Positions 5,077 to 60,606 of a DNA stretch of 64,000 bases are shown here, one piece after another. Position numbers and translations under genes: made by a program. The notes beneath the pieces are model-generated. The model ran no database searches. It was not told the origin of the DNA and saw only the letters and a list, made by a program, of their open reading frames with translations. Position 1 is the first letter of the stretch. Every line of letters begins with the position of its first letter. Origin of the DNA: a virus (taxonomy: Duplodnaviria; Heunggongvirae; Uroviricota; Caudoviricetes); IMG/VR virus record IMGVR_UViG_3300033993_002218, positions 1 through 64,000 of that record; one strand, 5' to 3'.

Positions 5077-5544
5077 TCAGAGTGTCACAAGATCACTGAA
5101 ATCCTGGCGGGATCGTTCCTTTACGATTACCCTATCTCCACCATAAGTCTCACCCCAATACTCACCTTCTCCACCTTTCCACACAATGTAACCTTTGGCA
5201 AGTGAACAGATAGACTTCAGAAACAAATCTTCCTGCCCAGTCTTATTACCATACCCATCAATGTGAAGATTTCCATTCTCACCAATGGAAGTGTAGAAAC
5301 CAACTTCCTGAAGAATCTTTTCAGCATCCTTACAAGTCTCATGATAGTTCCAATCCATCCATGAGAACCAGCAGGACTTATGAGGACCATACTCAGGTGC
5401 CTTATCCTTATCGGGATAAGATCCACCTCGTTTCTGACTGTTAGGAACAGTATAGTTTAGTTCACACATTGCCTTATAAGCAGCATCCAGATTCTCAGCA
5501 GGAATCATAAAGGTGCTTTCTTCAATGCTGACGTAGTAACCCAT
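5077..5544 (-). CDS. hypothetical protein (155 aa, trimmed start MGYYV)
   Basis: The upstream 24 codons are cassette sequence. CA-rich SD-less leader CAACCACCACATCATC-ATG. Confidence 0.55.
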   Translation of the reverse strand: MGYYVSIEESTFMIPAENLDAAYKAMCELNYTVPNSQKRGGSYPDKDKAPEYGPHKSCWFSWMDWNYHETCKDAEKILQEVGFYTSIGENGNLHIDGYGNKTGQEDLFLKSICSLAKGYIVWKGGEGEYWGETYGGDRVIVKERSRQDFSDLVTL

Positions 5545-8294: not shown

Positions 8295-8377
8295 GTGAGG
8301 TTTCTGTGTGTATGAGACTATTGTAGGGCATCCAGAGGAGTCTGAAGTGCCCTGCTGTGCCAGTTAATCAGGTGTCC
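8295..8377 (-). promoter_or_regulatory. intergenic cassette (type A: box, hairpin, TATAAT/TACAAT, SD)
   Basis: tgtgtgtatgagactattgtagggcatccagaggagtctgaagtgccc then tgtgccagttaatcaggtgtcc. Confidence 0.55.
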
Positions 8378-8634
8378 TCAACAATCAAGCAATAACGGCA
8401 CTGGAAAGCAAAAGTTTCTTTTTGCCAGGTTTTCTTCACACCATTCTCTTCCCAAGAATAAACAACCTCATACCAAGGGTCAGTAGAACCATAAGAATTA
8501 AAACCCTCAACGGTCACATAACCCTTGGAACCATCTGCCCGTGCCCAACGAGAACCAACTTGGATTTCATGATGTTTGAAGAAATGACGGACAACTGCTT
8601 TGTGTCCATCTATGATTTCAGTTTCGTAATTCAT
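8368..8634 (-). CDS. hypothetical protein (88 aa)
   Basis: ORF track. Confidence 0.55.
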   Translation of the reverse strand: MNYETEIIDGHKAVVRHFFKHHEIQVGSRWARADGSKGYVTVEGFNSYGSTDPWYEVVYSWEENGVKKTWQKETFAFQCRYCLIVEDT

Positions 8635-8639
8635 TATGC

Positions 8640-8930
8640 TTAAAAGAATTCTTTAATCATTTGCTTGAGATGCCACCAAGTTGATTTGGGTTTGTCTTCT
8701 TCAAGTGGGTTTTCCCTCTGCTCAAAATCCTTTCCATTTCGACCACAGAGAGATTTATCTTTCCTGACTTCAATACAAACCATATCAACAGCATAAACTA
8801 TGCCTTTAATGTAATCCAATTCTTCAACATAATGCTTTTGGCAAACATGAAAAAGACCAGGAATCAAACGACAATGCTTACAATCGCGGCAAGCAGGAAT
8901 CGGTTCAAGTAGAGAGTAATTTTCAGACAT
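8640..8930 (-). CDS. hypothetical Cys-rich protein (96 aa, trimmed start MSENY). Possible zinc-binding CxxCxxC.
   Basis: CRDCKHC...C...C pattern. The ORF-track N-terminal extension overlaps the upstream gene. Confidence 0.5.
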   Translation of the reverse strand: MSENYSLLEPIPACRDCKHCRLIPGLFHVCQKHYVEELDYIKGIVYAVDMVCIEVRKDKSLCGRNGKDFEQRENPLEEDKPKSTWWHLKQMIKEFF

Positions 8931-9510
8931 TGAATTCCATATCAACAAGAACCATTCTAGGTGCAAGATGAGCAGTCAACTCACCAATAACTTCAGCATC
9001 AACAAGACCAAGTTTACTCTGAATTGCTTCAGGAATCAACTTCAGAATCATTTCCCGAAACCTGTCATCCTCAGCAATATAACAGGATACTTCATCAGCA
9101 AGTGCTTCAGCAAGTCGTTCGTAACTTTGTTGTGTAAGTCCCACTGCTTTTTTCTCCTGTGTGTTGTTTTTTTGAGGTGTTACGTTATGAATCCACTTCT
9201 CATTCTTATGTTCTGCAATTAGAGAACGATTTACCCAACGATCAATGTCACTACCATAATACTCATTGATGATATTGGTCGTACACTGATCGCACTCAGA
9301 ATCACTGAAACCATATCCACGATACATCTCATTTGCATAGATCGTATCATAAATGATCTTCTGTGCAATTATAGGTTCAGTGTTGGTTGTGATTACTGCA
9401 TAAACAAGTGCATTGATCTCTTCAATGACTGAATCGGGAGTGTAAGAATAGCATTCCCATTCTTTACGATCACAGTAGAGTTTGTGAACGACATAATCAA
9501 AGGTAATCAT
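8923..9510 (-). CDS. hypothetical protein (195 aa)
   Basis: ORF track. Confidence 0.6.
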   Translation of the reverse strand: MITFDYVVHKLYCDRKEWECYSYTPDSVIEEINALVYAVITTNTEPIIAQKIIYDTIYANEMYRGYGFSDSECDQCTTNIINEYYGSDIDRWVNRSLIAEHKNEKWIHNVTPQKNNTQEKKAVGLTQQSYERLAEALADEVSCYIAEDDRFREMILKLIPEAIQSKLGLVDAEVIGELTAHLAPRMVLVDMEFNV

Positions 9511-10303: not shown

Positions 10304-10385
10304 TTGGTTGGGTTGCTTATGAATCAATTATAAGGCATCTGGTTCCCCTGTGAAGTGCCCTGTGTGCCAGTTGTTCAGGTGTCCT
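10304..10385 (-). promoter_or_regulatory. intergenic cassette (type A). Near-identical to the copy at 9645-9728.
   Basis: ttataaggcatctggttcccctgtgaagtgccctgtgtgccagttgttcaggtgtcc is repeated verbatim. Confidence 0.55.
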
Positions 10386-10551
10386 CGTCGTTCAAAATAG
10401 TGATGAGTTCTTCAGTAATTTTATCCAGTTTCCTACCAAAATGCTTTGCTGTGGAATTGTCGTGACAATCAAGCAAAAAATCAGAAACACTTTCAAGTTG
10501 AGGAAGAATTTTAACTCGGATTAGTTGTTCTTTGGTAATTTGGTTAGTCAT
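10375..10551 (-). CDS. hypothetical small protein (about 58 aa)
   Basis: Hand-translated MTNQITKEQLIRVKILPQLESVSDFLLDCHDNSTAKHFGRKLDKITEELITILNDEDT. Its stop TGA lies inside the cassette box. Confidence 0.35.
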   Translation of the reverse strand: MTNQITKEQLIRVKILPQLESVSDFLLDCHDNSTAKHFGRKLDKITEELITILNDEDT

Positions 10552-13699: not shown

Positions 13700-14431
13700 T
13701 TACTTTTTCAGAGTGGGCATCAGACGCAGACCATCACGGAAGATGGCATTTTTCATTTTACGCCTCACATCACTGAGGGTCTCCATAGTAGCAACGGTAT
13801 TTGCAAGAAACATTTTTTCAAGTTCCTCACGGATACGTTCAACCGAAACCTTGTTCAGCATTTCAGCAGCAAAATCGCTATTGACTGCATCCCAAGTTTG
13901 TCCTTCAATATTAAACCCTTTGGTAATGTGAAACCGCAGTGCCCTCATAACCCTCAGACCATCTTCTGCAATTCGGTCAGTAGGATTACCCACAAACCGA
14001 AGAAGATTATTCTCAAGGTCTTCACGACCACCGAAAGGATCCACCAGTTCCCCATCCAGAATTGCCATCGCATTCACGGTAAAATCCCGTCGTTGCAGGT
14101 CATCCATCAGGGTTCCGGGAAGAACAAAATCAGGACGACGACCATCACTACTCGGACCATCTTTCCGTGCCAGAACAAAGTCAGCAACAGTAGTTCTTTT
14201 CCTCACAGGATGCCACGTTGGAACTTGTGCCCGAACAGTGAAGAACTCAGGAGTTTCTAGAAAAACCTCAAATCCATCAACTTTCAAAACATTCACTAAG
14301 GTAGCAAATGCCTCATCGGCATTTGCGAACATCTTTGGATTTATCGGGATTGCAACGAAATCAACATCCTTGGAATCTACACCAAGAAACTTGTCTCGGA
14401 CTGCACCACCGACTTCTGCGAATTGGAACAT
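13700..14431 (-). CDS. tRNA nucleotidyltransferase (CCA-adding) / poly(A) polymerase family, head-neck only (243 aa)
   Basis: N-terminal VGGAVRD...D.D and RRDFTVNAMA motifs match class II CCA-adding enzymes. Confidence 0.8.
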   Translation of the reverse strand: MFQFAEVGGAVRDKFLGVDSKDVDFVAIPINPKMFANADEAFATLVNVLKVDGFEVFLETPEFFTVRAQVPTWHPVRKRTTVADFVLARKDGPSSDGRRPDFVLPGTLMDDLQRRDFTVNAMAILDGELVDPFGGREDLENNLLRFVGNPTDRIAEDGLRVMRALRFHITKGFNIEGQTWDAVNSDFAAEMLNKVSVERIREELEKMFLANTVATMETLSDVRRKMKNAIFRDGLRLMPTLKK

Positions 14432-22699: not shown

Positions 22700-23518
22700 T
22701 CACTTACCAGTCAGACCACCAGGCAGGAAATCCATCTTAGCACCGTTGATAATCACCATCTTTTGGATGCTACCATTCTCAAATGCTGCTTTGAGGATTT
22801 CGTTACGTTGATACTCCAGAGATTGAGTCGTCACAGTAGAAGCAAGTGCCTTATTCTCTTCTGCTTTCAGTTGAGCAGTGCGAGTTTTCACCTCTTGCTC
22901 TTTATTTGCCGATTGGGCAGCAACCACACGGTTCACAGAGGCAACCAGTGCGTCAGGCAGGTCTGCTTTCACAACCACAACGGATTCAATATCAATCTTA
23001 CCGGCAAGGTTGTTCTTCTCCAGAGACAGATTCAGATTCTGTTTGATAGTTTCTTGAATCTTATCCAGACTGCTGTTCACTTCCAGAGCAGGATATTCAT
23101 CAACCGATTGGTTCACGGCAGAAGTAATCAGACGTTTGATGAAACTTGCCATCAGTTCAATCTGACCATTCTCACTGACACCGTGATTGGTAATATCATA
23201 ACCAGTGTAGAAATTATACAGACTGGTGGGAGACAGACTATAAGTAACCACAACATCCATATCTTTCATAATGGTGTTGTCTTTGGTCTTGGGAGTCAGA
23301 TCACTGGATTGTACTGTGATCTTACGAGTGTTGAATACCTTAATAGAACCAAAACCATCGTATTTGATACCAGGAGTGAGAACTTCATTCTTCACCTGAC
23401 CATCAAATCCAATATAGAGACCATTTTCACCAGTGTTAATCGTAGTGAATTGACCAGCAGTGAGAATCAGTGCCAGAAAAACACCGCCAACACCAATAGC
23501 AATTTTTCCAGTAGACAT
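22700..23518 (-). CDS. SPFH / band-7 (prohibitin-stomatin-HflKC family) membrane protein (272 aa)
   Basis: N-terminal transmembrane helix followed by an SPFH-like core and a long Ala/Lys/Glu coiled-coil tail. Confidence 0.8.
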   Translation of the reverse strand: MSTGKIAIGVGGVFLALILTAGQFTTINTGENGLYIGFDGQVKNEVLTPGIKYDGFGSIKVFNTRKITVQSSDLTPKTKDNTIMKDMDVVVTYSLSPTSLYNFYTGYDITNHGVSENGQIELMASFIKRLITSAVNQSVDEYPALEVNSSLDKIQETIKQNLNLSLEKNNLAGKIDIESVVVVKADLPDALVASVNRVVAAQSANKEQEVKTRTAQLKAEENKALASTVTTQSLEYQRNEILKAAFENGSIQKMVIINGAKMDFLPGGLTGK

Positions 23519-28513: not shown

Positions 28514-28582
28514 TTGTTTGGTTGCGTATAAGAGTATTATAAGGGGTCTACAGGGTTTGTGGAGTGTCCTTGTGCCAGTTGT

Positions 28583-28735
28583 TCAAGTGTCCTCTTTGAT
28601 TGCTTGTTCCATAATAATCTGGATCTCCTTGCTTGTCAACCCATTTAACCATTTCCAATCTGGGTCTTGTGGATCCCAATCCATCGTATAAGATCCATCC
28701 TCGTTTTGAGTTATCTTAAGTGTATCCTTAGACAT
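28583..28735 (-). CDS. hypothetical small protein (about 50 aa)
   Basis: Hand-translated MSKDTLKITQNEDGSYTMDWDPQDPDWKWLNGLTSKEIQIIMEQAIKEDT. Its stop lies in the cassette box. Confidence 0.3.
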   Translation of the reverse strand: MSKDTLKITQNEDGSYTMDWDPQDPDWKWLNGLTSKEIQIIMEQAIKEDT

Positions 28736-31997: not shown

Positions 31998-32068
31998 AAC
32001 GTTTGTTTGATTACCTGTGTATTATAAGGGATTGAAGGGGGTTTGGGAAGGGGTCTTGTGCCAGTTGT

Positions 32069-32461
32069 TCAGGTGTCCTCATCATCTGGAAGGAAAATCA
32101 AAGTAGGTTTTTGATCTTCCTCATACCTTGAATAACCAATAAACTCTCCAGGATATCCATCAACATAAGGCATAATCCATTCAAAAAACTTTTGAATCTC
32201 CTGACCATAGTTTTTAATGTCCCCCTTACCAAGAAGAGACCACCGTTGAGTGATACCGTCGTAGGTTAGCGAACGACAATGGGTATCAGGAGTGTAACAA
32301 CTGCCAGAATAGAACATACTACCCCACCTATCAGGATAAGGTTCCAAAACTTTTTCGTCACTTTCTTCCATATCACACATTACCTTCAACACCTCAATAA
32401 TCTCATCAGGTGTATCTTTTTTGAGATCCACATTAACGTAGATTTCAGTGTACATTCCCAT
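32069..32461 (-). CDS. hypothetical acidic protein (131 aa, trimmed start MGMYT)
   Basis: The cassette-derived N-terminus MLYDTLIHTRN is trimmed. AAGGAAC lies upstream of the internal ATG. Confidence 0.55.
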   Translation of the reverse strand: MGMYTEIYVNVDLKKDTPDEIIEVLKVMCDMEESDEKVLEPYPDRWGSMFYSGSCYTPDTHCRSLTYDGITQRWSLLGKGDIKNYGQEIQKFFEWIMPYVDGYPGEFIGYSRYEEDQKPTLIFLPDDEDT

Positions 32462-36604: not shown

Positions 36605-36690
36605 AAGAGAGTTCCTTTGTGTGTATGAGAGTATTATAAGGCAAGAAAGGGCACCCCAAAGGATGCCCTGTGCCAGTTGTTCAAGTGTCC
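36605..36690 (-). promoter_or_regulatory. intergenic cassette (type A) upstream of nadV
   Basis: tgtgtgtatgagagtattataaggcaagaaagggcaccccaaaggatgccctgtgccagttgttcaagtgtcc. Confidence 0.55.
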
Positions 36691-38064
36691 TCAGACAATT
36701 ACAGAAGCATTGTATCGGACTTCATCAAAGGTATACTCTTTGACGATTTCACCATTCTCAAACACAGTCTCAAGAACTTCTTCAGCATCAGTCCTACCTT
36801 CCAAGTCAGTGAAATAACCTTCATCATTACGATAGAGTGTTACACGACCTTTCTTGGATTCTTTACCCATATCGGTAATTGGACTCTTATACACATCTCT
36901 CTGTTCTCCTTTAACTTCAATTGAAGAACACTTCATTGCAAACTTCTGAGTATCACGGTCAATACTTTGAAGAAGTTTACCACCTTGACCGAAGGCAATG
37001 TTGTCTGCAGAATATCCAGCAGTCATTGCTCTATAAAGAATTCGGTCAATCGTATCTTGAGTGATACCATCACCTTGAATAATACGGACGTGATTAAGAA
37101 CTTTGAATCCTTTATCATTTACCGTGTGTCCATAGTGACTATCAAGAATCTTAAGGCACTCAGTTACAACTTCTGGAGGATAACCACTATCAGGACGAAC
37201 CACAAGAGTTGCACCAGAGTTGATTACATCATCCTTGAGAACAGTGCCCCACATATGGCAGGCATCGTAAATGTTATAACTATCACTTACGCAAGCAAAG
37301 AGACTGTTAGGTTTGCCGTAGATTTTTACCATATTACGGTAAGAATCTTCTTCACCCTTTCTACCCCAAGAAGTCACGGTGCTGTGTTCCATAGCAGGAA
37401 TAGAGAATCCTGCAATATCAATGTTGTAGTATTCTTTACCATAAAGCAAAGCACTTACCGTATCAGTTCCCTGAAAGTTTACAAGGTGTGCGAGACCACC
37501 AATACCAGCAGACTCGAAGGAAGATACACCACGAGCACCGAAATCGTGAAGTTTGAACTCAATCGTTCTGGGATCTCCAGTTTTCATCAAGTAATCGTGA
37601 ATGATTCTCTTACTTTCGTAGGAGTTGGTAGCAACAGTAGTTCCGTACCAAATACTCCTGAGAAGTGCAGTCTCAATATAACTTGTCAACCAAGCACATT
37701 GAGGGTCAGTATTTTCAACAGTAGCAAGAACATTCTTCACAGGAATTACAGAACCTTCAGGAACTGCTTTGATGCGAATAGGCAACTTACCACCATATTC
37801 ACGAAGAATATATTCCCAACCTTCACGATTGAAAGGTTCTCCGTGTCCCCCAGCAATTAGTTCAGCAAAATCAATATCTTCCTGAGTAATAGGATTAGAA
37901 AGATACTCCTTTAGAAAGATTTGAAGACCGAAGAAAACAGTTTGTTTCCAACTACCTCCACGACTTTCAACATAGGAATATACGTTCGTAGTCCCTTCGG
38001 GATACTGATTGTATTGCGAAAACTTGTAAGAATCTGTGTTTGTGATAATCGTTTTGTTAATCAT
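36691..38064 (-). CDS. nadV: nicotinamide phosphoribosyltransferase (NAMPT/NadV), 457 aa
   Basis: The N-terminus ...TDSYKFSQYNQYPEGTTNVYSYVESRGG and overall length match the NAMPT family. Shine-Dalgarno TTAAGGAGTTTAAA-ATG. Confidence 0.9.
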   Translation of the reverse strand: MINKTIITNTDSYKFSQYNQYPEGTTNVYSYVESRGGSWKQTVFFGLQIFLKEYLSNPITQEDIDFAELIAGGHGEPFNREGWEYILREYGGKLPIRIKAVPEGSVIPVKNVLATVENTDPQCAWLTSYIETALLRSIWYGTTVATNSYESKRIIHDYLMKTGDPRTIEFKLHDFGARGVSSFESAGIGGLAHLVNFQGTDTVSALLYGKEYYNIDIAGFSIPAMEHSTVTSWGRKGEEDSYRNMVKIYGKPNSLFACVSDSYNIYDACHMWGTVLKDDVINSGATLVVRPDSGYPPEVVTECLKILDSHYGHTVNDKGFKVLNHVRIIQGDGITQDTIDRILYRAMTAGYSADNIAFGQGGKLLQSIDRDTQKFAMKCSSIEVKGEQRDVYKSPITDMGKESKKGRVTLYRNDEGYFTDLEGRTDAEEVLETVFENGEIVKEYTFDEVRYNASVIV

Positions 38065-38146
38065 TTTAAACTCCTTAAAATGTGGATAATGCCTTCGGTC
38101 TATCCAAAGGACTTTTGTGTGTTAATGACTGTCACCTGTCAAAGTT

Positions 38147-38326
38147 TCATTTACCTAAAATAATATCTAAAAGGGTTCTTTTCTTTTTTGGTTTAGGTTC
38201 TTTTATTTTGGGTCTTTTCTCCGGTGGATTGATAAACTTAACCCCGAAATATTCCTCAAAAAACTTTATCCGAAGTTTAGGGTCGTTAAGTATTTTTCTA
38301 AGTCTTGGACTTATAACACCTTTCAT
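38147..38326 (-). CDS. hypothetical small basic protein (about 59 aa)
   Basis: Hand-translated MKGVISPRLRKILNDPKLRIKFFEEYFGVKFINPPEKRPKIKEPKPKKKRTLLDIILGK. The competing plus ORF 38082..38336 is a less likely call. Confidence 0.3.
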   Translation of the reverse strand: MKGVISPRLRKILNDPKLRIKFFEEYFGVKFINPPEKRPKIKEPKPKKKRTLLDIILGK

Positions 38327-38332
38327 TTTAGT

Positions 38333-38584
38333 TTAACACCTAAATTGCTCTTTACCACCGTGAATATTATTCAACACTTGTTGATGTTGAGGTGGTCCTG
38401 CTTGAGGGTCAATATCGTGCTTAAAAACAAGAGCGAGATGACTTTGGATTAAGTCAACTTGTCTTTTGCTTAATCCTTCTGCTCCTATATCACCGTGCAA
38501 TTCAAAATAACCCTGTAACCAATAACAAAACTCAGTTGCTTTCATAGTAGATAATGTGTTATAGAACAAGTTCAGGTTTACCAT
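38333..38584 (-). CDS. hypothetical protein (83 aa)
   Basis: ORF track. Confidence 0.45.
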   Translation of the reverse strand: MVNLNLFYNTLSTMKATEFCYWLQGYFELHGDIGAEGLSKRQVDLIQSHLALVFKHDIDPQAGPPQHQQVLNNIHGGKEQFRC

Positions 38585-39086
38585 CTAAATCCTCACGCAA
38601 AGCAGTGAGAACTTGACCCAACCAATTAGTTCCTTGCCAATTAGCAGGATTTTCAATCTCTTTCTCATAACCACCAAGACCCACACCCCAAACAGTATCA
38701 GTAGGTGATGCTTCAACCAGATAATAACCTTTAGTTTCCATCAGGTAATTATAAGCATCTTCATTTTGAGTGAACTTATAAAAGCATCCCTCATAAACAA
38801 TTTGCCTTGCGTGATTATCCCAAACTTCCTTATTGAAGTTCTTGACTTTACGACCAAGTGCTTTCTGGTCTCCTGGAAAGGTTTTCTTCATAATCTTTCG
38901 AGCAATATCAAGGTCATTAAAGAGTAATGCCTTCTTATGCATCATATACTGTTCGGCGCAGTTATATGGGTCTCCACTTCGGGTATCTAGAAAAGGAGTA
39001 TCCGCCCAGTTTGATAGGAACCCATTATAGAAAAAGACATATTGACTATACTTCTCTAGAAAGTTTTGTTCTTTGAATTGCATCAT
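38559..39086 (-). CDS. NADAR-domain (YbiA-like, DUF1768) protein, about 175 aa
   Basis: Trp/Gly-rich core ...YNCAEQYMMHKKALLF...WGVGLGG...NWQGTNWLGQVL typical of NADAR. Trimmed to MMQF with GGAG upstream. Confidence 0.7.
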   Translation of the reverse strand: MMQFKEQNFLEKYSQYVFFYNGFLSNWADTPFLDTRSGDPYNCAEQYMMHKKALLFNDLDIARKIMKKTFPGDQKALGRKVKNFNKEVWDNHARQIVYEGCFYKFTQNEDAYNYLMETKGYYLVEASPTDTVWGVGLGGYEKEIENPANWQGTNWLGQVLTALREDLDGKPELVL

Positions 39087-39088
39087 TG

Positions 39089-40108
39089 TTATACTCCGGT
39101 AAAATAGTTGATGATTTCGTAATGGTCTTCGTAGCACTCACTTGGATTGATTTTGGAAATTGGAATCCATTTTGCAGATGTAGCATCACTTCCACCTTTG
39201 ACTTTTGGAAGTTCTCCGTTAGGAAGTTTGATGTGAAATGCATGAGTGATTGTCCTACCTCTGGTGCTTCGTTCAATCGCATCAAAGACTTTTGCTTCTG
39301 CTATATTACCACGAAGAACTGGAGCAGGCACCTTGAGTTGAGTTTCCTCCCTCACTTCCCGTATCATAGCATCCTCTAGGGACTTGTCGCTTAAAGCGTC
39401 TAGGAACCCTCCAGGAAGGGCAAGGAGACCCTTTCCAGGTTCTGCCCGACGACGAATCATCAGAATGTGCCCACACTGCACTACGACGGCATCCACCGTC
39501 ACGAAGGTTGGGGGATATGGGAAAGAAGCATACTGAGACTTATATTTTTCAACAAAATCAATCTCTCGGAGAATTTGGTCGTAATCCTCTGTCTTAGAAA
39601 ACTTATTGAGAAACTCCAGAACTTCTACTGGAATGACACTCTTAATAAAGTTTGGGTTGTAGTCCTCTTTGAAGTAGAGTTTTCGGATTTGAGATGCACT
39701 CAGTTCTTCAATCAAAGGGACTTCAATTAGGTCCCACTGAGGGAACATATCAAGATAGAAAGAAGTCTCATCTTTCTTGTATCCAATAATTCCAACTTTA
39801 ATGTCTTCAAAGGGATTGATTTTATTCACAATACTTTGAACTCTAGATACCCAAGCATCATTGTTGTAGATGGTATCTTGAATTGGATGAATGCTATAAC
39901 TAGCATTTACCATCATTAAAGTTTCGTTGATTAAATATTCCCGTTCATCATAAGAGAATGGGTTCTTAAAAGTTCTGGGTTGATTTGCAGACCCCACAAT
40001 AATCGCAGTGTGTTCTGCAAGTTCTGTTGCCCGTTTGATAATCTCTAGGTGAGCATTATGGAACGGTTGAAACCGACCAATAAAAACAATTACATCATAT
40101 TTTTTCAT
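39089..40108 (-). CDS. natV: bifunctional NMN adenylyltransferase / Nudix ADP-ribose pyrophosphatase (NatV/NadM-Nudix type), about 339 aa
   Basis: FIGRFQPFHNAHLEI is the (H/T)xGH nucleotidyltransferase motif. GGFLDALSDKSLEDAMIREVREETQL is a Nudix box. The start is trimmed to MKKYD behind TAAGGAGTTTAGAATT-ATG. Confidence 0.85.
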   Translation of the reverse strand: MKKYDVIVFIGRFQPFHNAHLEIIKRATELAEHTAIIVGSANQPRTFKNPFSYDEREYLINETLMMVNASYSIHPIQDTIYNNDAWVSRVQSIVNKINPFEDIKVGIIGYKKDETSFYLDMFPQWDLIEVPLIEELSASQIRKLYFKEDYNPNFIKSVIPVEVLEFLNKFSKTEDYDQILREIDFVEKYKSQYASFPYPPTFVTVDAVVVQCGHILMIRRRAEPGKGLLALPGGFLDALSDKSLEDAMIREVREETQLKVPAPVLRGNIAEAKVFDAIERSTRGRTITHAFHIKLPNGELPKVKGGSDATSAKWIPISKINPSECYEDHYEIINYFTGV

Positions 40109-40225
40109 AATTCTAAACTCCTTAGAATGTTGTGTTGTTAGAACGTCTATCGTTCTAATGTATGTATTATAATGGAAAAGGGGGGCACCTGTAAAGTGCC
40201 CTTGTGCCAGTTGTTCAAGTGTCCT
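40109..40225 (-). promoter_or_regulatory. intergenic cassette (type A) upstream of natV
   Basis: attataatggaaaaggggggcacctgtaaagtgcccttgtgccagttgttcaagtgtcc. -10 at 40166-71. Confidence 0.55.
40138..40158 (-). promoter_or_regulatory. perfect 8 bp inverted repeat (TTAGAACG-tctat-CGTTCTAA) in the natV leader, between the -10 and the Shine-Dalgarno
   Basis: Seen directly. Candidate operator or leader hairpin. Confidence 0.4.
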
Positions 40226-40290
40226 CAAATAAGTGCTTTGTTTTTTCTTTGAGTTCTTTTATAAGGTCATCCCTGATAATTTCTTGTGGT

Positions 40291-44223: not shown

Positions 44224-44275
44224 ACCACTCCCAGAACCCCACAGAGCATCCCCTGTGCCAGTTCTTCAAGTGTCC

Positions 44276-44428
44276 TCACTCATTCACAGGAATACTATAA
44301 ATCTCTACACTCTCTGGAACTACTATTACTCTATTTGTTTCAATAGCAAATCTAATACTATCCCCAAGTTCTTTTTTTAGTTGTGCTGAATAATCTTCAG
44401 GAACTTTTGCGACAATAAGGTTTTCCAT
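44276..44428 (-). CDS. hypothetical small protein (about 50 aa)
   Basis: Hand-translated MENLIVAKVPEDYSAQLKKELGDSIRFAIETNRVIVVPESVEIYSIPVNE. Confidence 0.3.
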   Translation of the reverse strand: MENLIVAKVPEDYSAQLKKELGDSIRFAIETNRVIVVPESVEIYSIPVNE

Positions 44429-59355: not shown

Positions 59356-60606
59356 TCACTTGTTAATTGTAGAAATTACAGGTTGCCCCTGAACAAATGC
59401 CATATCAGCAACAGATTGCAGTCGTCGTGCGGTTGCAATCCCAGTATTAGCATACACCGGAACATGAATAAAACCATAGGATTTCACATAATCTTCGGTT
59501 TTACCAGGAGTCAGAGACCCCTCTGAGAGACGCCTAGAATCCTCTGGATGAAGGCGCACCACACGCCCAATGGTTTGCACCATAGAAGTATAGTCCATGT
59601 TCCTCATGAGGATGCAGGAGGTCAATCCTGGGCAATCAATACCCTCAGAAAGAATGGAGTAGTGAAGAAGAACAAACTTCTTGGTAGAATCTGCACCGTA
59701 TTCCTTGAGAGTTTCAAAGAATACATCACGCTTGACTTTTTGATTGTTAATGAATGCACCATGCTTAGCAGTAATCCACAGAATCTCATAACCATGAGAC
59801 TGAATCTCAGTCATAAAATCAGTTTCGGCAAGCATACGAATCATTACCTTAGTATTCGGTGCTGCAACCAGAACCTTTTCCATGTTCTCTTCATTCAGAA
59901 TAGTATCCAGAAGAGTCATGCAATCATGTTCTGCACCAAATTCTTTATTACGAACAACATTCCTTTCCTGAGTATTGATTTGTGGAGGAACAATGAATCC
60001 CTCCTTAACCATATCAGAAGCAGAAATATTCGTAATCATTTGACCATACACATGACTCCAGTTCATACCAGGTTTGTTGTAAACATTAGAATACTTTGGA
60101 GTTGCAGTATAAGAATAGAATCGCTTGGACTTCTGAGACAATTGCTCCACATAAGGAAAGAAATCCTTACGAACGGAATTATGTGCCTCATCCATATGAA
60201 CGGTATCAATTTCAATACCAGACTCAATCAGACGATGAAGAGAATGATACGTTGTAAAGATCAGTTTATGACCTTCAACATTCTCATGCCATTCACGAAT
60301 CATCTTAGGACTGGTAGTGCAGAAATGATCAGTATCACCAGAATGCACATGAAGAATGTGAGCATTATTAATGTACTTGATGTAATCCGAACACAACTGA
60401 GAAGTCAACAGGATTCGTGGAGAAATCACAACAACAGTTTGATGCTGAGACTTCTTATACTCACGAATAGTATCTCCGATACCAATCAGAGTCTTACCTG
60501 CACCAGTCACGGCACAGACAACACCTCTGGAATATTTGGAGAGCATGTCAAGAGCACTTTGCTGATGAGGACGAAACTGAATCATGGGGTGATTGGTTGA
60601 CTTCAC
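59356..60606 (-). CDS. SF2 DEAH-box helicase (416 aa)
   Basis: Walker A CAVTGAGKTLIGI. DEAH box HMDEAHN. Motif III TATP. C-terminal helicase fold with TIGRVVR (motif VI-like). Confidence 0.8.
   Translation of the reverse strand: MKSTNHPMIQFRPHQQSALDMLSKYSRGVVCAVTGAGKTLIGIGDTIREYKKSQHQTVVVISPRILLTSQLCSDYIKYINNAHILHVHSGDTDHFCTTSPKMIREWHENVEGHKLIFTTYHSLHRLIESGIEIDTVHMDEAHNSVRKDFFPYVEQLSQKSKRFYSYTATPKYSNVYNKPGMNWSHVYGQMITNISASDMVKEGFIVPPQINTQERNVVRNKEFGAEHDCMTLLDTILNEENMEKVLVAAPNTKVMIRMLAETDFMTEIQSHGYEILWITAKHGAFINNQKVKRDVFFETLKEYGADSTKKFVLLHYSILSEGIDCPGLTSCILMRNMDYTSMVQTIGRVVRLHPEDSRRLSEGSLTPGKTEDYVKSYGFIHVPVYANTGIATARRLQSVADMAFVQGQPVISTINK

Follow-up and report, generated by a model that had tools for sequence, protein, structure and literature searches.

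What governs the expression of nicotinamide-salvage genes that are carried by a phage, and why should a gene for a NADAR protein stand between them? We addressed this question for a stretch of 64,000 nucleotides (nt) from the Caudoviricetes virus record IMGVR_UViG_3300033993_002218 (positions 1 to 64,000; "the window" below means this whole stretch), in which natV, a NADAR gene and nadV stand together on the minus strand. The gene content is of a known kind, both for NARP2, the route from nicotinamide to nicotinamide adenine dinucleotide (NAD+) that NadV and NatV make up, and for NADAR beside NadM or NadV; what is new is a leader RNA before both enzyme genes and a defined slot for accessory genes between them. 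We describe here the structure, conservation and specificity of this RNA, the identity of the genes and the layout of their operon, and the exchange of genes in the slot, and we weigh what the leader and the NADAR protein may do.

A leader of two hairpins before natV and nadV

A first-pass annotation of this stretch had picked out a perfect 8-bp inverted repeat before natV, offered as a candidate operator or regulatory hairpin, and a Shine-Dalgarno (SD) block shared by natV and nadV. The repeat is exact: TTAGAACG-ATAGA-CGTTCTAA occupies positions 40138-40158, read on the gene strand, between the TATAAT box (40171-40166) and the SD. It forms the first hairpin of a short motif, about 60 nt in length, and a second copy of this motif, whose hairpin 1 had been overlooked, lies directly before nadV (Table 1). 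In both copies hairpin 1 carries the loop AUAGA and is followed by a hairpin 2 that encloses the SD, and folds of minimum free energy (MFE) give both hairpins, at -11.6 kcal/mol (z -4.1) for the natV leader and -12.8 kcal/mol (z -2.7) for the nadV leader.

The shared block of 15 nt, TAAGGAGTTTA(A/G)AAT, has two sites in the window even when 2 mismatches are allowed, 40110-40124 (natV) and 38063-38077 (nadV). Its restriction to these two genes thus stands, but the block is the SD-enclosing hairpin 2 of the leader and not an SD alone. Hairpins with an ATAGA loop and a stem of at least 7 bp number exactly 2 in the 64 kb, compared with 0.22 expected: one in the natV leader and one in the nadV leader, each on the gene strand. 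Consistent with this, a covariance model of the motif (CM R1), run with filters off, finds the natV and nadV leaders as its sole sites in the window, the next match having an E of 0.34.

Conservation and covariation in phages

The loci compared here carry L-numbers; an IMG/VR scan with NatV gave the 80 related contigs used for the survey of the gene slot described below. In Synechococcus phage B23, the natV leader has another stem around the same loop (CCAGAAA-ATAGA-TTTCTGG), and the nadV leaders of both phages have yet other stems, again with that loop. Hairpin 1 as found across the phages consists of a variable, covarying stem in which a mid-stem internal loop is tolerated, a closing G-C pair and the loop A-(U/C/A)-A-G-A; across viral loci it ends 28-33 nt before the start codon, and a C/A-rich linker of about 10 nt joins it to hairpin 2. 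The latter is weak, holds the SD in its loop and upper stem, and has a 3' arm that ends at or in the ATG; its stem covaries as well (TTCTAA/TTAGAA, GTTAA/TTAAC, GATAA/TTATC, TACAAA/TTTGTA).

Covariation was measured on 108 distinct phage leaders (alignment A1), with 500 shuffles and slid controls for comparison. Both helices are supported: 82.3% of cells are paired versus 60.6% in the shuffles, and the covariation score is 0.483 versus 0.155, a value that 0/500 shuffles reached and the slid controls (at most 0.138) did not approach. The closing pair is G-C in 107 of the 108 leaders, and the next two pairs are nearly always paired, by many types of pair.

The position of the motif is equally regular. 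In 900 kb of related phage DNA the covariance model gave 151 matches at E <=0.002, all of them on the sense strand and at most 2 per locus, which sit at the head of the natV operon and directly before nadV. The leader stays at the operon head where small open reading frames (ORFs) are inserted, and hairpin 1 is kept at natV-nadV junctions that have no promoter between the genes. Enclosure of the SD distinguishes these starts from others in the same loci: a hairpin of at least 4 bp surrounds the SD at 100% of phage target starts versus 37% of control starts, and the mean MFE is -3.5 kcal/mol for targets versus -1.7 kcal/mol for controls, despite the lower G+C content of the targets (p 2e-22).

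Among the inserted genes is a 108-aa Cys/His-rich ORF (phrog_12218, unknown function), found exactly between the natV leader and natV in L012 (5667-5990), L020 and L035. In L035 the leader used by this ORF does not differ from that of natV in L027, which exemplifies the insertion of a gene downstream of a leader already present.

Distribution in bacteria and in other phages

Bacteria provided an independent set of sequences. One genome per species was scanned with the NatV alignment, which yielded 80 nadM loci, among them loci from Xanthomonadales, Burkholderiales, Methylococcales, Caulobacterales, Rhodospirillales, Oceanospirillales and Sulfurovum. Matches of the phage-trained covariance model concentrate at two places, close before nadM and close behind it, where they precede nadV. 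A regular expression (G-A[ACU]AGA-C with at least 3 flanking pairs) matched 149 times on the sense strand and once on the antisense strand. In 68 of 79 loci nadM has the motif upstream at no more than 120 nt, and the same holds for nadV in 68 of 73, with a median distance from loop to start of 37-39 nt. Over the 131 distinct hairpin 1 sequences of this set, 84.3% of cells are paired versus 55.2% when shuffled, and the covariation score is 0.655 versus 0.168, again with 0/500 shuffles reaching the observed value. The loop reads ACAGA, AUAGA or AAAGA, position 2 never being G, and an SD-enclosing hairpin is present at 90% of bacterial targets versus 66% of controls. No neighbouring gene besides nadM and nadV is conserved at the bacterial loci, and no dedicated regulator gene is conserved there.

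Further phages have the motif before both natV and nadV, namely Synechococcus phage BUCT-ZZ01 (loop AAAGA), Roseobacter phage DSS3P8 and the Xanthomonas jumbo phage LucasX. In Klebsiella phage RaK2 (L167, at about 2920-2997 and 5105-5183) two hairpins are arranged analogously in the leaders of natV and nadV, with SD-enclosing hairpins and other loops in hairpin 1 (CAGAGAG-UGAUGUAG-CUCUCU and CAGAGAAC-GUAGUA-GUUCUCU); these leaders may be a second variant.

A helix of RNA rather than a DNA operator

At the conserved pairs, counted in instances chosen by position only, G·U exceeds A·C by 24:3 in phages and by 42:6 in bacteria; a helix in the sense-strand RNA therefore fits, and a DNA palindrome does not. 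The palindrome before natV could have been taken for a DNA operator to which a dimeric repressor binds, for example NrtR, which responds to ADP-ribose: in the natV copy the palindrome is perfect and spans 21 bp, the length of an NrtR box, it lies between the -10 box and the SD, and NrtR controls the same targets, nadM and nadV, in Synechocystis (Rodionov et al. 2008, PMC2330246). We consider this extremely improbable, and the NrtR-type operator was rejected on several grounds. The natV copy reads AC-N7-GT and not the NrtR core GT-N7-AC, which is absent from the leaders, and the nadV copy spans only 19 bp. The arms differ wholly between copies, even within one genome, around an asymmetric centre that is invariant, which is the opposite of what an operator would lead one to expect. 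G·U is tolerated where A·C is not; the orientation is sense by 149:1 in bacteria and in 151/151 significant phage matches; and it is the distance to the AUG that is fixed, not the distance to the promoter, the element being kept where no promoter exists. By word counts, Rodionov et al. 2008 (PMC2330246) mentions neither Xanthomonas nor Burkholderia, two of the genera that bear the motif.

The regulatory role suggested in the first-pass annotation holds, and the palindrome is to be seen as a hairpin of RNA, given its invariant loop, covarying arms, tolerance of G·U, fixed orientation and retention in operons without a promoter at that place. On the comparative evidence of compensatory changes, strand specificity and a fixed position relative to the genes, the motif is a structured cis-regulatory RNA.

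It belongs to none of the families against which it was compared. Scans with the Rfam 15 covariance models, at E up to 10, matched no family to the leaders, whether of the window or of the Xanthomonas and Burkholderia loci, and the open literature searched held no description of an RNA motif or riboswitch at nadV or nadM, though other papers might hold one. The NAD+ riboswitches of class I (nadA motif) and class II (pnuC motif) are likewise cis-acting 5' leaders before genes of NAD biosynthesis or uptake, and class II also acts on the SD. The leader nevertheless has no match to them in sequence or structure in Rfam 15, and differs from them in its genes (nadM and nadV), in its taxa (Pseudomonadota, Campylobacterota and phages) and in a much smaller core, confined to the apical pentaloop.

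A predicted single operon bracketed by cassettes

The module in the window belongs to a T4-like cyanophage background: a helicase of the window shares 71% identity with its counterpart in Synechococcus phage S-SRM01, and hundreds more matches are to T4-like cyanophages. The nearest isolates for the module itself are Synechococcus phages B3 and B23 (amino-acid identity 81% for NADAR and 56% for NatV), in which the order natV, NADAR, small ORF, nadV is as in the window.

The coordinates and gene calls of nadV, NADAR and natV in the first-pass annotation agree with the ORF list and with Pfam; two ORFs between NADAR and nadV (38333-38545/38584 and 38147-38326) had gone unmentioned, and the full order is natV-NADAR-orf83-orf59-nadV. 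For orf83, a counterpart lies in the same slot of L003 and L007 (tblastn, 71-72% identity). No Pfam or PHROG match was found for orf59, whose DNA was not found in L002-L007; it has been seen in the window only. NADAR begins 2 nt past the natV stop codon and has its SD within natV; orf83 and orf59 are packed tightly behind it, and the genes abut or overlap.

It had been proposed that each gene of the module has its own cassette, which is not the case. Cassette copies bracket the module, at 40166-40228 before natV and at 36640-36693 after the nadV stop; there is no copy inside it at up to 5 mismatches, so that NADAR has none of its own, and the promoter scan scored no sigma-70-like promoter before NADAR or nadV. 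At the position of the nadV promoter, where relatives have TTGACA-N17-TATACT, the window has a decayed remnant in which the scan scores nothing. Because the cassettes are at the ends only, one good promoter is present (before natV) and the genes abut or overlap, natV-NADAR-orf83-orf59-nadV would form one transcription unit, presumably a single early operon of a T4-like cyanophage. The TTTACA-18-TATAAT before natV is its likely promoter, and the downstream cassette copy would end the operon, by way of a putative terminator, and carry the promoter of the next gene.

Over the window, the cassette has 14 copies at up to 3 mismatches, compared with 0 expected, and 20 at up to 5. In gene sense it runs from the stop codon of the upstream gene through a conserved element of 22-24 nt (GGACACYTGAAsAACTGGCACA), a variable G+C hairpin, CCTTATAAT and a conserved leader, ACUCUCAUACACACAAAGGA, to the ATG; the G+C hairpin often holds the -35 box in its loop. 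The upstream element is also found before natV in Synechococcus phage B23 (L001 5841-5860). The cassettes may be related to the promoter-early stem-loop (PeSL) cassettes of T4-type phages, reportedly described by Arbiol and colleagues in 2010 as repeats of an early promoter and a stem-loop that bracket small modules in a hyperplastic early region, with exchange at the module borders. The repeats and borders seen in the window would fit such a description; the window cassette has in addition the strongly conserved upstream element of 22 nt.

Other genes on the minus strand of the window encode a PolyA_pol/CCA-adding-type nucleotidyltransferase (13700-14431), a ResIII/DEAD helicase (59356-60606, the one resembling that of S-SRM01) and a GP88-family protein (1282-2016). 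Most of the remaining ORFs have no Pfam match, and there are no tRNA genes within the 64-kb window.

Table 1. Features of the natV-nadV module and its leaders (window coordinates).
Feature	Position	Strand	Details
natV leader RNA motif	40106-40163	-	CM R1 45.3 bits, E 7e-8
natV hairpin 1	40138-40158	-	UUAGAACG AUAGA CGUUCUAA
natV hairpin 2	40110-40128	-	AUUCUAA GGAGU UUAGAAU; encloses SD; AUG at 40108-40106
nadV leader RNA motif	38059-38116	-	CM R1 58.6 bits, E 8e-11
nadV hairpin 1	38092-38110	-	CCUUUGG AUAGA CCGAAGG; one G·U
nadV hairpin 2	38062-38082	-	CAUUUUAA GGAGU UUAAAAUG; encloses SD, includes AUG
natV	39089-40108	-	339 aa; Pfam CTP_transf_like 1.8e-12 + NUDIX 4.7e-15
NADAR	38559-39086	-	175 aa; PF08719 9.5e-48; phrog_1017
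orf83	38333-38584	-	start at 38545 (70 aa) likelier; phrog_28500, unknown function
orf59	38147-38326	-	lysine-rich; unknown function
nadV	36691-38064	-	457 aa; Pfam NAPRTase 6e-56 + NAMPT_N 7e-27
24-nt cassette upstream element before natV	40204-40227	-	exact copy, gene sense TGAGGACACTTGAACAACTGGCAC
Cassette hairpin and natV promoter	40166-40201	-	hairpin 40183-40201; -35 TTTACA 40195-40190 in hairpin loop
natV promoter (predicted)	40171-40166 (-10 TATAAT)	-	18-nt spacer; 11/12 consensus matches in promoter scan
Decayed nadV promoter remnant	38117-38138	-	TTGACA, 12-nt spacer, TAACAC
Downstream cassette copy	36640-36693	-	24-nt element 36670-36693, exact; nadV stop codon (TGA) lies within it
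Terminator-like hairpin	36649-36668	-	GGGCAUCC UUUG GGGUGCCC, then UUUCUU
Example cassette sites	8357-8380, 10364-10387, 28572-28595, 32058-32081, 36670-36693, 40204-40227, 44255-44278	-	repeated element

NadV and NatV as enzymes of NARP2

The two-step reading of NadV and NatV, from nicotinamide to NAD+, proved sound. Profile searches matched NAPRTase, CTP_transf_like with NUDIX, and NADAR in the respective proteins, and the PHROG names for NatV, NADAR and NadV agree with Pfam. NadV aligns to a bacterial Nampt (PDB 7YQO, E 6e-166) with the motifs TDSYK, GTDT, HDFGARG, RPDSG, QGDG and GQGG retained, and NatV to the NadM-Nudix protein of Synechocystis (PDB 2QJO, E 6e-88) with GRFQPFHNAH and the Nudix core REVREET retained; in NatV, the first Glu of GX5E aligns to a Lys beside an insertion of 2 residues. 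An intact enzyme of the Nampt type and a bifunctional NMNAT-Nudix enzyme are thus encoded in one phage operon, which makes the module a member of NARP2. NadV would convert nicotinamide and phosphoribosyl pyrophosphate (PRPP) to nicotinamide mononucleotide (NMN), which the N-terminal domain of NatV would adenylate to NAD+; the Nudix domain of NatV could split ADP-ribose into AMP and ribose-5-phosphate.

The pathway has been published for KVP40 and counters NAD+-depleting immunity; it consumes PRPP, overproduces NAD+ even when no defence system is present, and is toxic in Escherichia coli (bioRxiv 10.1101/2024.02.11.579819). Restoration of NAD+ and the overcoming of defence are expected of the module in the window from its membership of NARP2. 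The KVP40 system (Lee et al. 2017; Osterman et al., bioRxiv 10.1101/2024.02.11.579819) has the same two phage-encoded enzymes, reaction scheme and anti-defence rationale. The layout differs, in that the window has natV and then nadV in one operon with an accessory slot, whereas the KVP40-like phage phi-pp2 has no nadV within 3 kb of natV, and the KVP40-type leader is without the RNA motif that both leaders in the window contain. NatV of the window is closest to the NadM-Nudix proteins of Synechocystis and proteobacteria, with 34-37% identity to the KVP40-like NatV of Vibrio phages.

In two of the nearest relatives of the window (L002 7806-10106, L004 3840-6133) nadV is split after codon 177, between HDFGA and RG of the motif named above, by an insert of about 0.9 kb, and the insert of L002 encodes a 241-aa HNH-type endonuclease (8528-9253). 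The inserts are probably self-splicing introns or homing elements; nadV of the window is unbroken.

The natV-nadV slot and the NADAR protein

In all 72 viral loci that hold both genes, natV stands before nadV on the same strand, and the gap between them measures from 45 nt to 4 kb. The ORFs of these gaps were clustered over 55 non-empty slots. A Poa1-like macrodomain is encoded in 48 of the 55, a protein resembling nucleoside 2-deoxyribosyltransferase (NDT-like) in 7, NADAR in 4 (the window, B23, L005 and L007) and a SLOG protein in 2. Among the other cargo are genes of the radical SAM, ATP-grasp, HNH and 2OG-oxygenase kinds, together with numerous small ORFs. The macrodomain protein, of about 170-190 aa, matches the yeast ADP-ribose 1''-phosphate phosphatase (6LFU, E 5e-5), other macrodomains and phrog_335. 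In the nearest relatives of the window, L002 (NatV 97%) and L003 (NadV 99%), it occupies the position at which the window has NADAR, and DNA homology to both stops exactly at the gene borders, 39088 and 38562. Homologues of the macrodomain, NDT-like and SLOG proteins were not found elsewhere in the 64-kb window. Since the contents vary and the homology breaks at gene borders, the natV-nadV gap is a hypervariable slot, and NADAR is an exchangeable accessory that replaces the macrodomain gene for gene.

The protein itself appears to be a complete enzyme. Its domain covers positions 10-162 of the 163 of the PF08719 profile, and alignment to PDB 8BAU (E 1e-17), with AEQYMMHKK, VEAS and DTVWGVG aligned, shows the Glu of EQY, the Lys 7 residues on, EAS and WGxG to be present; the spacing of Glu and Lys is that of E36 and K43 in T4 AdfN (PMC11825919). 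With the catalytic residues intact, activity is predicted, and NADAR would remove or process ADP-ribose adducts or derivatives. It shares these residues with T4 gp30.3/AdfN and, as a stand-alone early phage protein adjacent to NadM/NadV, resembles the neighbourhoods of Iyer, Burroughs, Anantharaman, and Aravind (2022, PMC9503650); it differs in sitting in a defined exchangeable slot that normally holds a Poa1-like macrodomain. It also keeps the Glu of EAS, whereas proteins of the T4 AdfN type have His for an otherwise conserved Glu (PMC11825919), a correspondence taken from the published description.

What the substrate might be can be argued in two ways. NADAR may be mainly an anti-DarT1 factor like T4 AdfN, acting on ADP-ribosylated guanine of the phage DNA, with the NAD genes around it no more than the accident of a hypervariable region. 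Guanine is de-ADP-ribosylated in vitro by every NADAR subtype tested (PMC11125620), DarTG1 is neutralised by several phage NADARs (PMC11825919), the protein of the window has both the catalytic Glu and the Lys 7 residues on, and the slot also carries cargo that is plainly unrelated (HNH, radical SAM, ATP-grasp). We regard this as a real possibility, held at somewhat less than even weight. T4 NADAR and YbiA gave cells no protection from DarT1 outside their own context (PMC11125620), and the neighbourhood speaks against incidental cargo: the slot is strongly enriched in domains that process ADP-ribose or nucleotides (the macrodomain above all, with NDT-like and SLOG proteins), NADAR swaps for the macrodomain exactly at gene borders, and NADAR beside NadM/NadV is recurrent and already published for phages (PMC9503650). 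In a locus from an uncultured Pseudomonadales bacterium (L085 2855-3340), moreover, a NADAR gene 37% identical to that of the window lies directly upstream of nadM, with the leader motif between them; the association of NADAR with nadM and nadV is therefore present in bacteria too.

Because the macrodomain is replaced, the slot is enriched in ADP-ribose-related cargo and NADAR lies beside nadM in L085, the context leans toward a function linked to the pathway, one that would act on derivatives or conjugates of ADP-ribose and so feed or protect NAD+ synthesis. NADAR could free ADP-ribose from such compounds for recycling by the Nudix domain, or could destroy signals based on ADP-ribose. We argue that a step of ADP-ribose processing belongs functionally to NAD+ reconstitution by phages.

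Proposed translational control and its alternatives

We propose that the leader would act as a translational control element on natV and nadV. Hairpin 2 would limit the access of ribosomes, and hairpin 1, with its invariant loop and closing pair, would be recognised by a trans-acting factor through which the two enzymes are co-regulated. The motif travels with nadM and nadV across unrelated hosts and phyla and no regulator is conserved nearby, so the factor would be either an enzyme that the module encodes, NadM or NadV acting autogenously, or a universal metabolite of the pathway. Control makes biological sense in view of the consumption of PRPP by NARP2, its overproduction of NAD+ and its toxicity in E. 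coli, and the leader most likely gates the translation of this costly pathway. As a whole, the account of one operon that encodes NARP2 with an exchangeable NADAR and is subject to translational control through a leader and its trans-acting factor seems to us moderately probable.

Recognition by a protein is slightly favoured over a riboswitch, because the conserved core consists of the apical pentaloop only and there is no general alternative pairing or pseudoknot. In the natV leader of the window, an arm of hairpin 1 and one of hairpin 2 are complementary to each other (TTAGAA/TTCTAA), and UCUA is a potential partner for the loop; neither pairing is general across leaders, and both were rejected. 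Loop position 2 switches between U and C in close relatives without a compensating change. Hairpins with invariant loops are recognised by proteins in the iron-responsive element bound by IRP1, the T4 gp43 and RegA operators and the pentaloop of lambda boxB. These operator hairpins and the leader have in common an invariant apical loop, a short upper helix, a tolerated internal loop and a lower helix, in a place shortly before the start site that recurs among the mRNAs of one pathway. The loop sequence differs, the AAAGA variant being one base away from the GAAGA of lambda nutL boxB, and the leader motif, unlike these operators, occurs in both bacteria and phages.

A metabolite might instead be bound by the RNA directly, with NAD+, NMN, nicotinamide, ADP-ribose or PRPP as candidate ligands; docking of the pentaloop would then alter the stability of the SD hairpin, and phage or host could turn salvage on only when NAD+ falls or ADP-ribose rises. 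Such a riboswitch would account well for a motif that crosses phyla and phage families together with its genes, as expected for a universal factor, for its presence on both genes of one pathway, and for the want of a conserved regulator gene; riboswitches typically have an expression platform in which the SD is sequestered, and sensing would pay where the pathway is costly. The RNA offers little with which to do so. Only about 7 nucleotides are invariant, all of them in one apical loop, a scant basis for a selective pocket; neither an internal loop nor a junction or pseudoknot is conserved, hairpin 2 has no alternative pairing, and the Rfam classes of NAD+ riboswitches do not match. We therefore think a riboswitch rather unlikely, although it is a serious rival.

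A passive role for hairpin 1, as a determinant of processing or stability that protects the mRNA or is cut by a ribonuclease, with hairpin 2 merely tuning translation and no dedicated regulator, is in our judgement a good deal less probable than that. Stem-loops at the 5' end do stabilise mRNAs, and hairpin 1 begins a few nt past the predicted transcription start in promoter-proximal copies and lies at cistron junctions in operon-internal ones. A passive stabiliser, though, needs neither an invariant loop and closing pair, kept across phyla on a freely varying stem, nor a constant spacing of 32-39 nt to the AUG.

For the proposal of translational control by a trans-acting factor, several observations count on the other side. 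The motif was not found in the leaders of the KVP40-like phage phi-pp2, of RB43 or of the phiCbK-like phage BL64, which rules out its being universal to NARP2 and means that the pathway as such does not require it. Nor is it confined to NAD genes: three gammaproteobacteria have a third copy before an SPFH/Band_7 gene downstream of nadV (L085 7137-7151, L086 6161-6181, L090 4554-4580), and other copies stand before small ORFs, in phages and, in the case of a membrane ORF, in Sulfurovum, so that the regulon may be slightly wider than the two NAD genes. Without a general alternative pairing or pseudoknot between them, the coupling of hairpins 1 and 2 is not evident. The sequences within the phage set and within the bacterial set are related, and the shuffle statistics given above overstate their independence; the promoter and terminator assignments, finally, were made by consensus matching only. 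The Band_7 protein encoded in the window (22700-23518, minus strand) is without a copy of the leader.

Implications for NAD+ salvage in phages and bacteria

A covarying leader has thus been found on both nicotinamide-salvage enzymes, in about 150 phage and about 130 bacterial sequences. It offers a handle on the regulation of nadM and nadV in Xanthomonas, Stenotrophomonas and Burkholderia, and it may account for the way in which phages keep the cost of NARP2 in check, that is, the use of PRPP, the excess of NAD+ and the toxicity of the pathway when it is freely expressed. The slot in which macrodomain, NADAR, NDT-like and SLOG genes replace one another argues, in turn, for ADP-ribose processing as a step in NAD+ reconstitution.

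A more far-reaching idea, which we put forward tentatively and ourselves think doubtful, is that the two-hairpin G-AHAGA-C leader is a new class of metabolite- or enzyme-sensing RNA for nadM and nadV in Pseudomonadota, Campylobacterota and several phage families. The counter-defence through NARP2 would then depend on conditions, with translation turned on when immunity depletes NAD+ or releases ADP-ribose; if this were true, an RNA-level sensor of immune attack would lie inside an anti-defence module.

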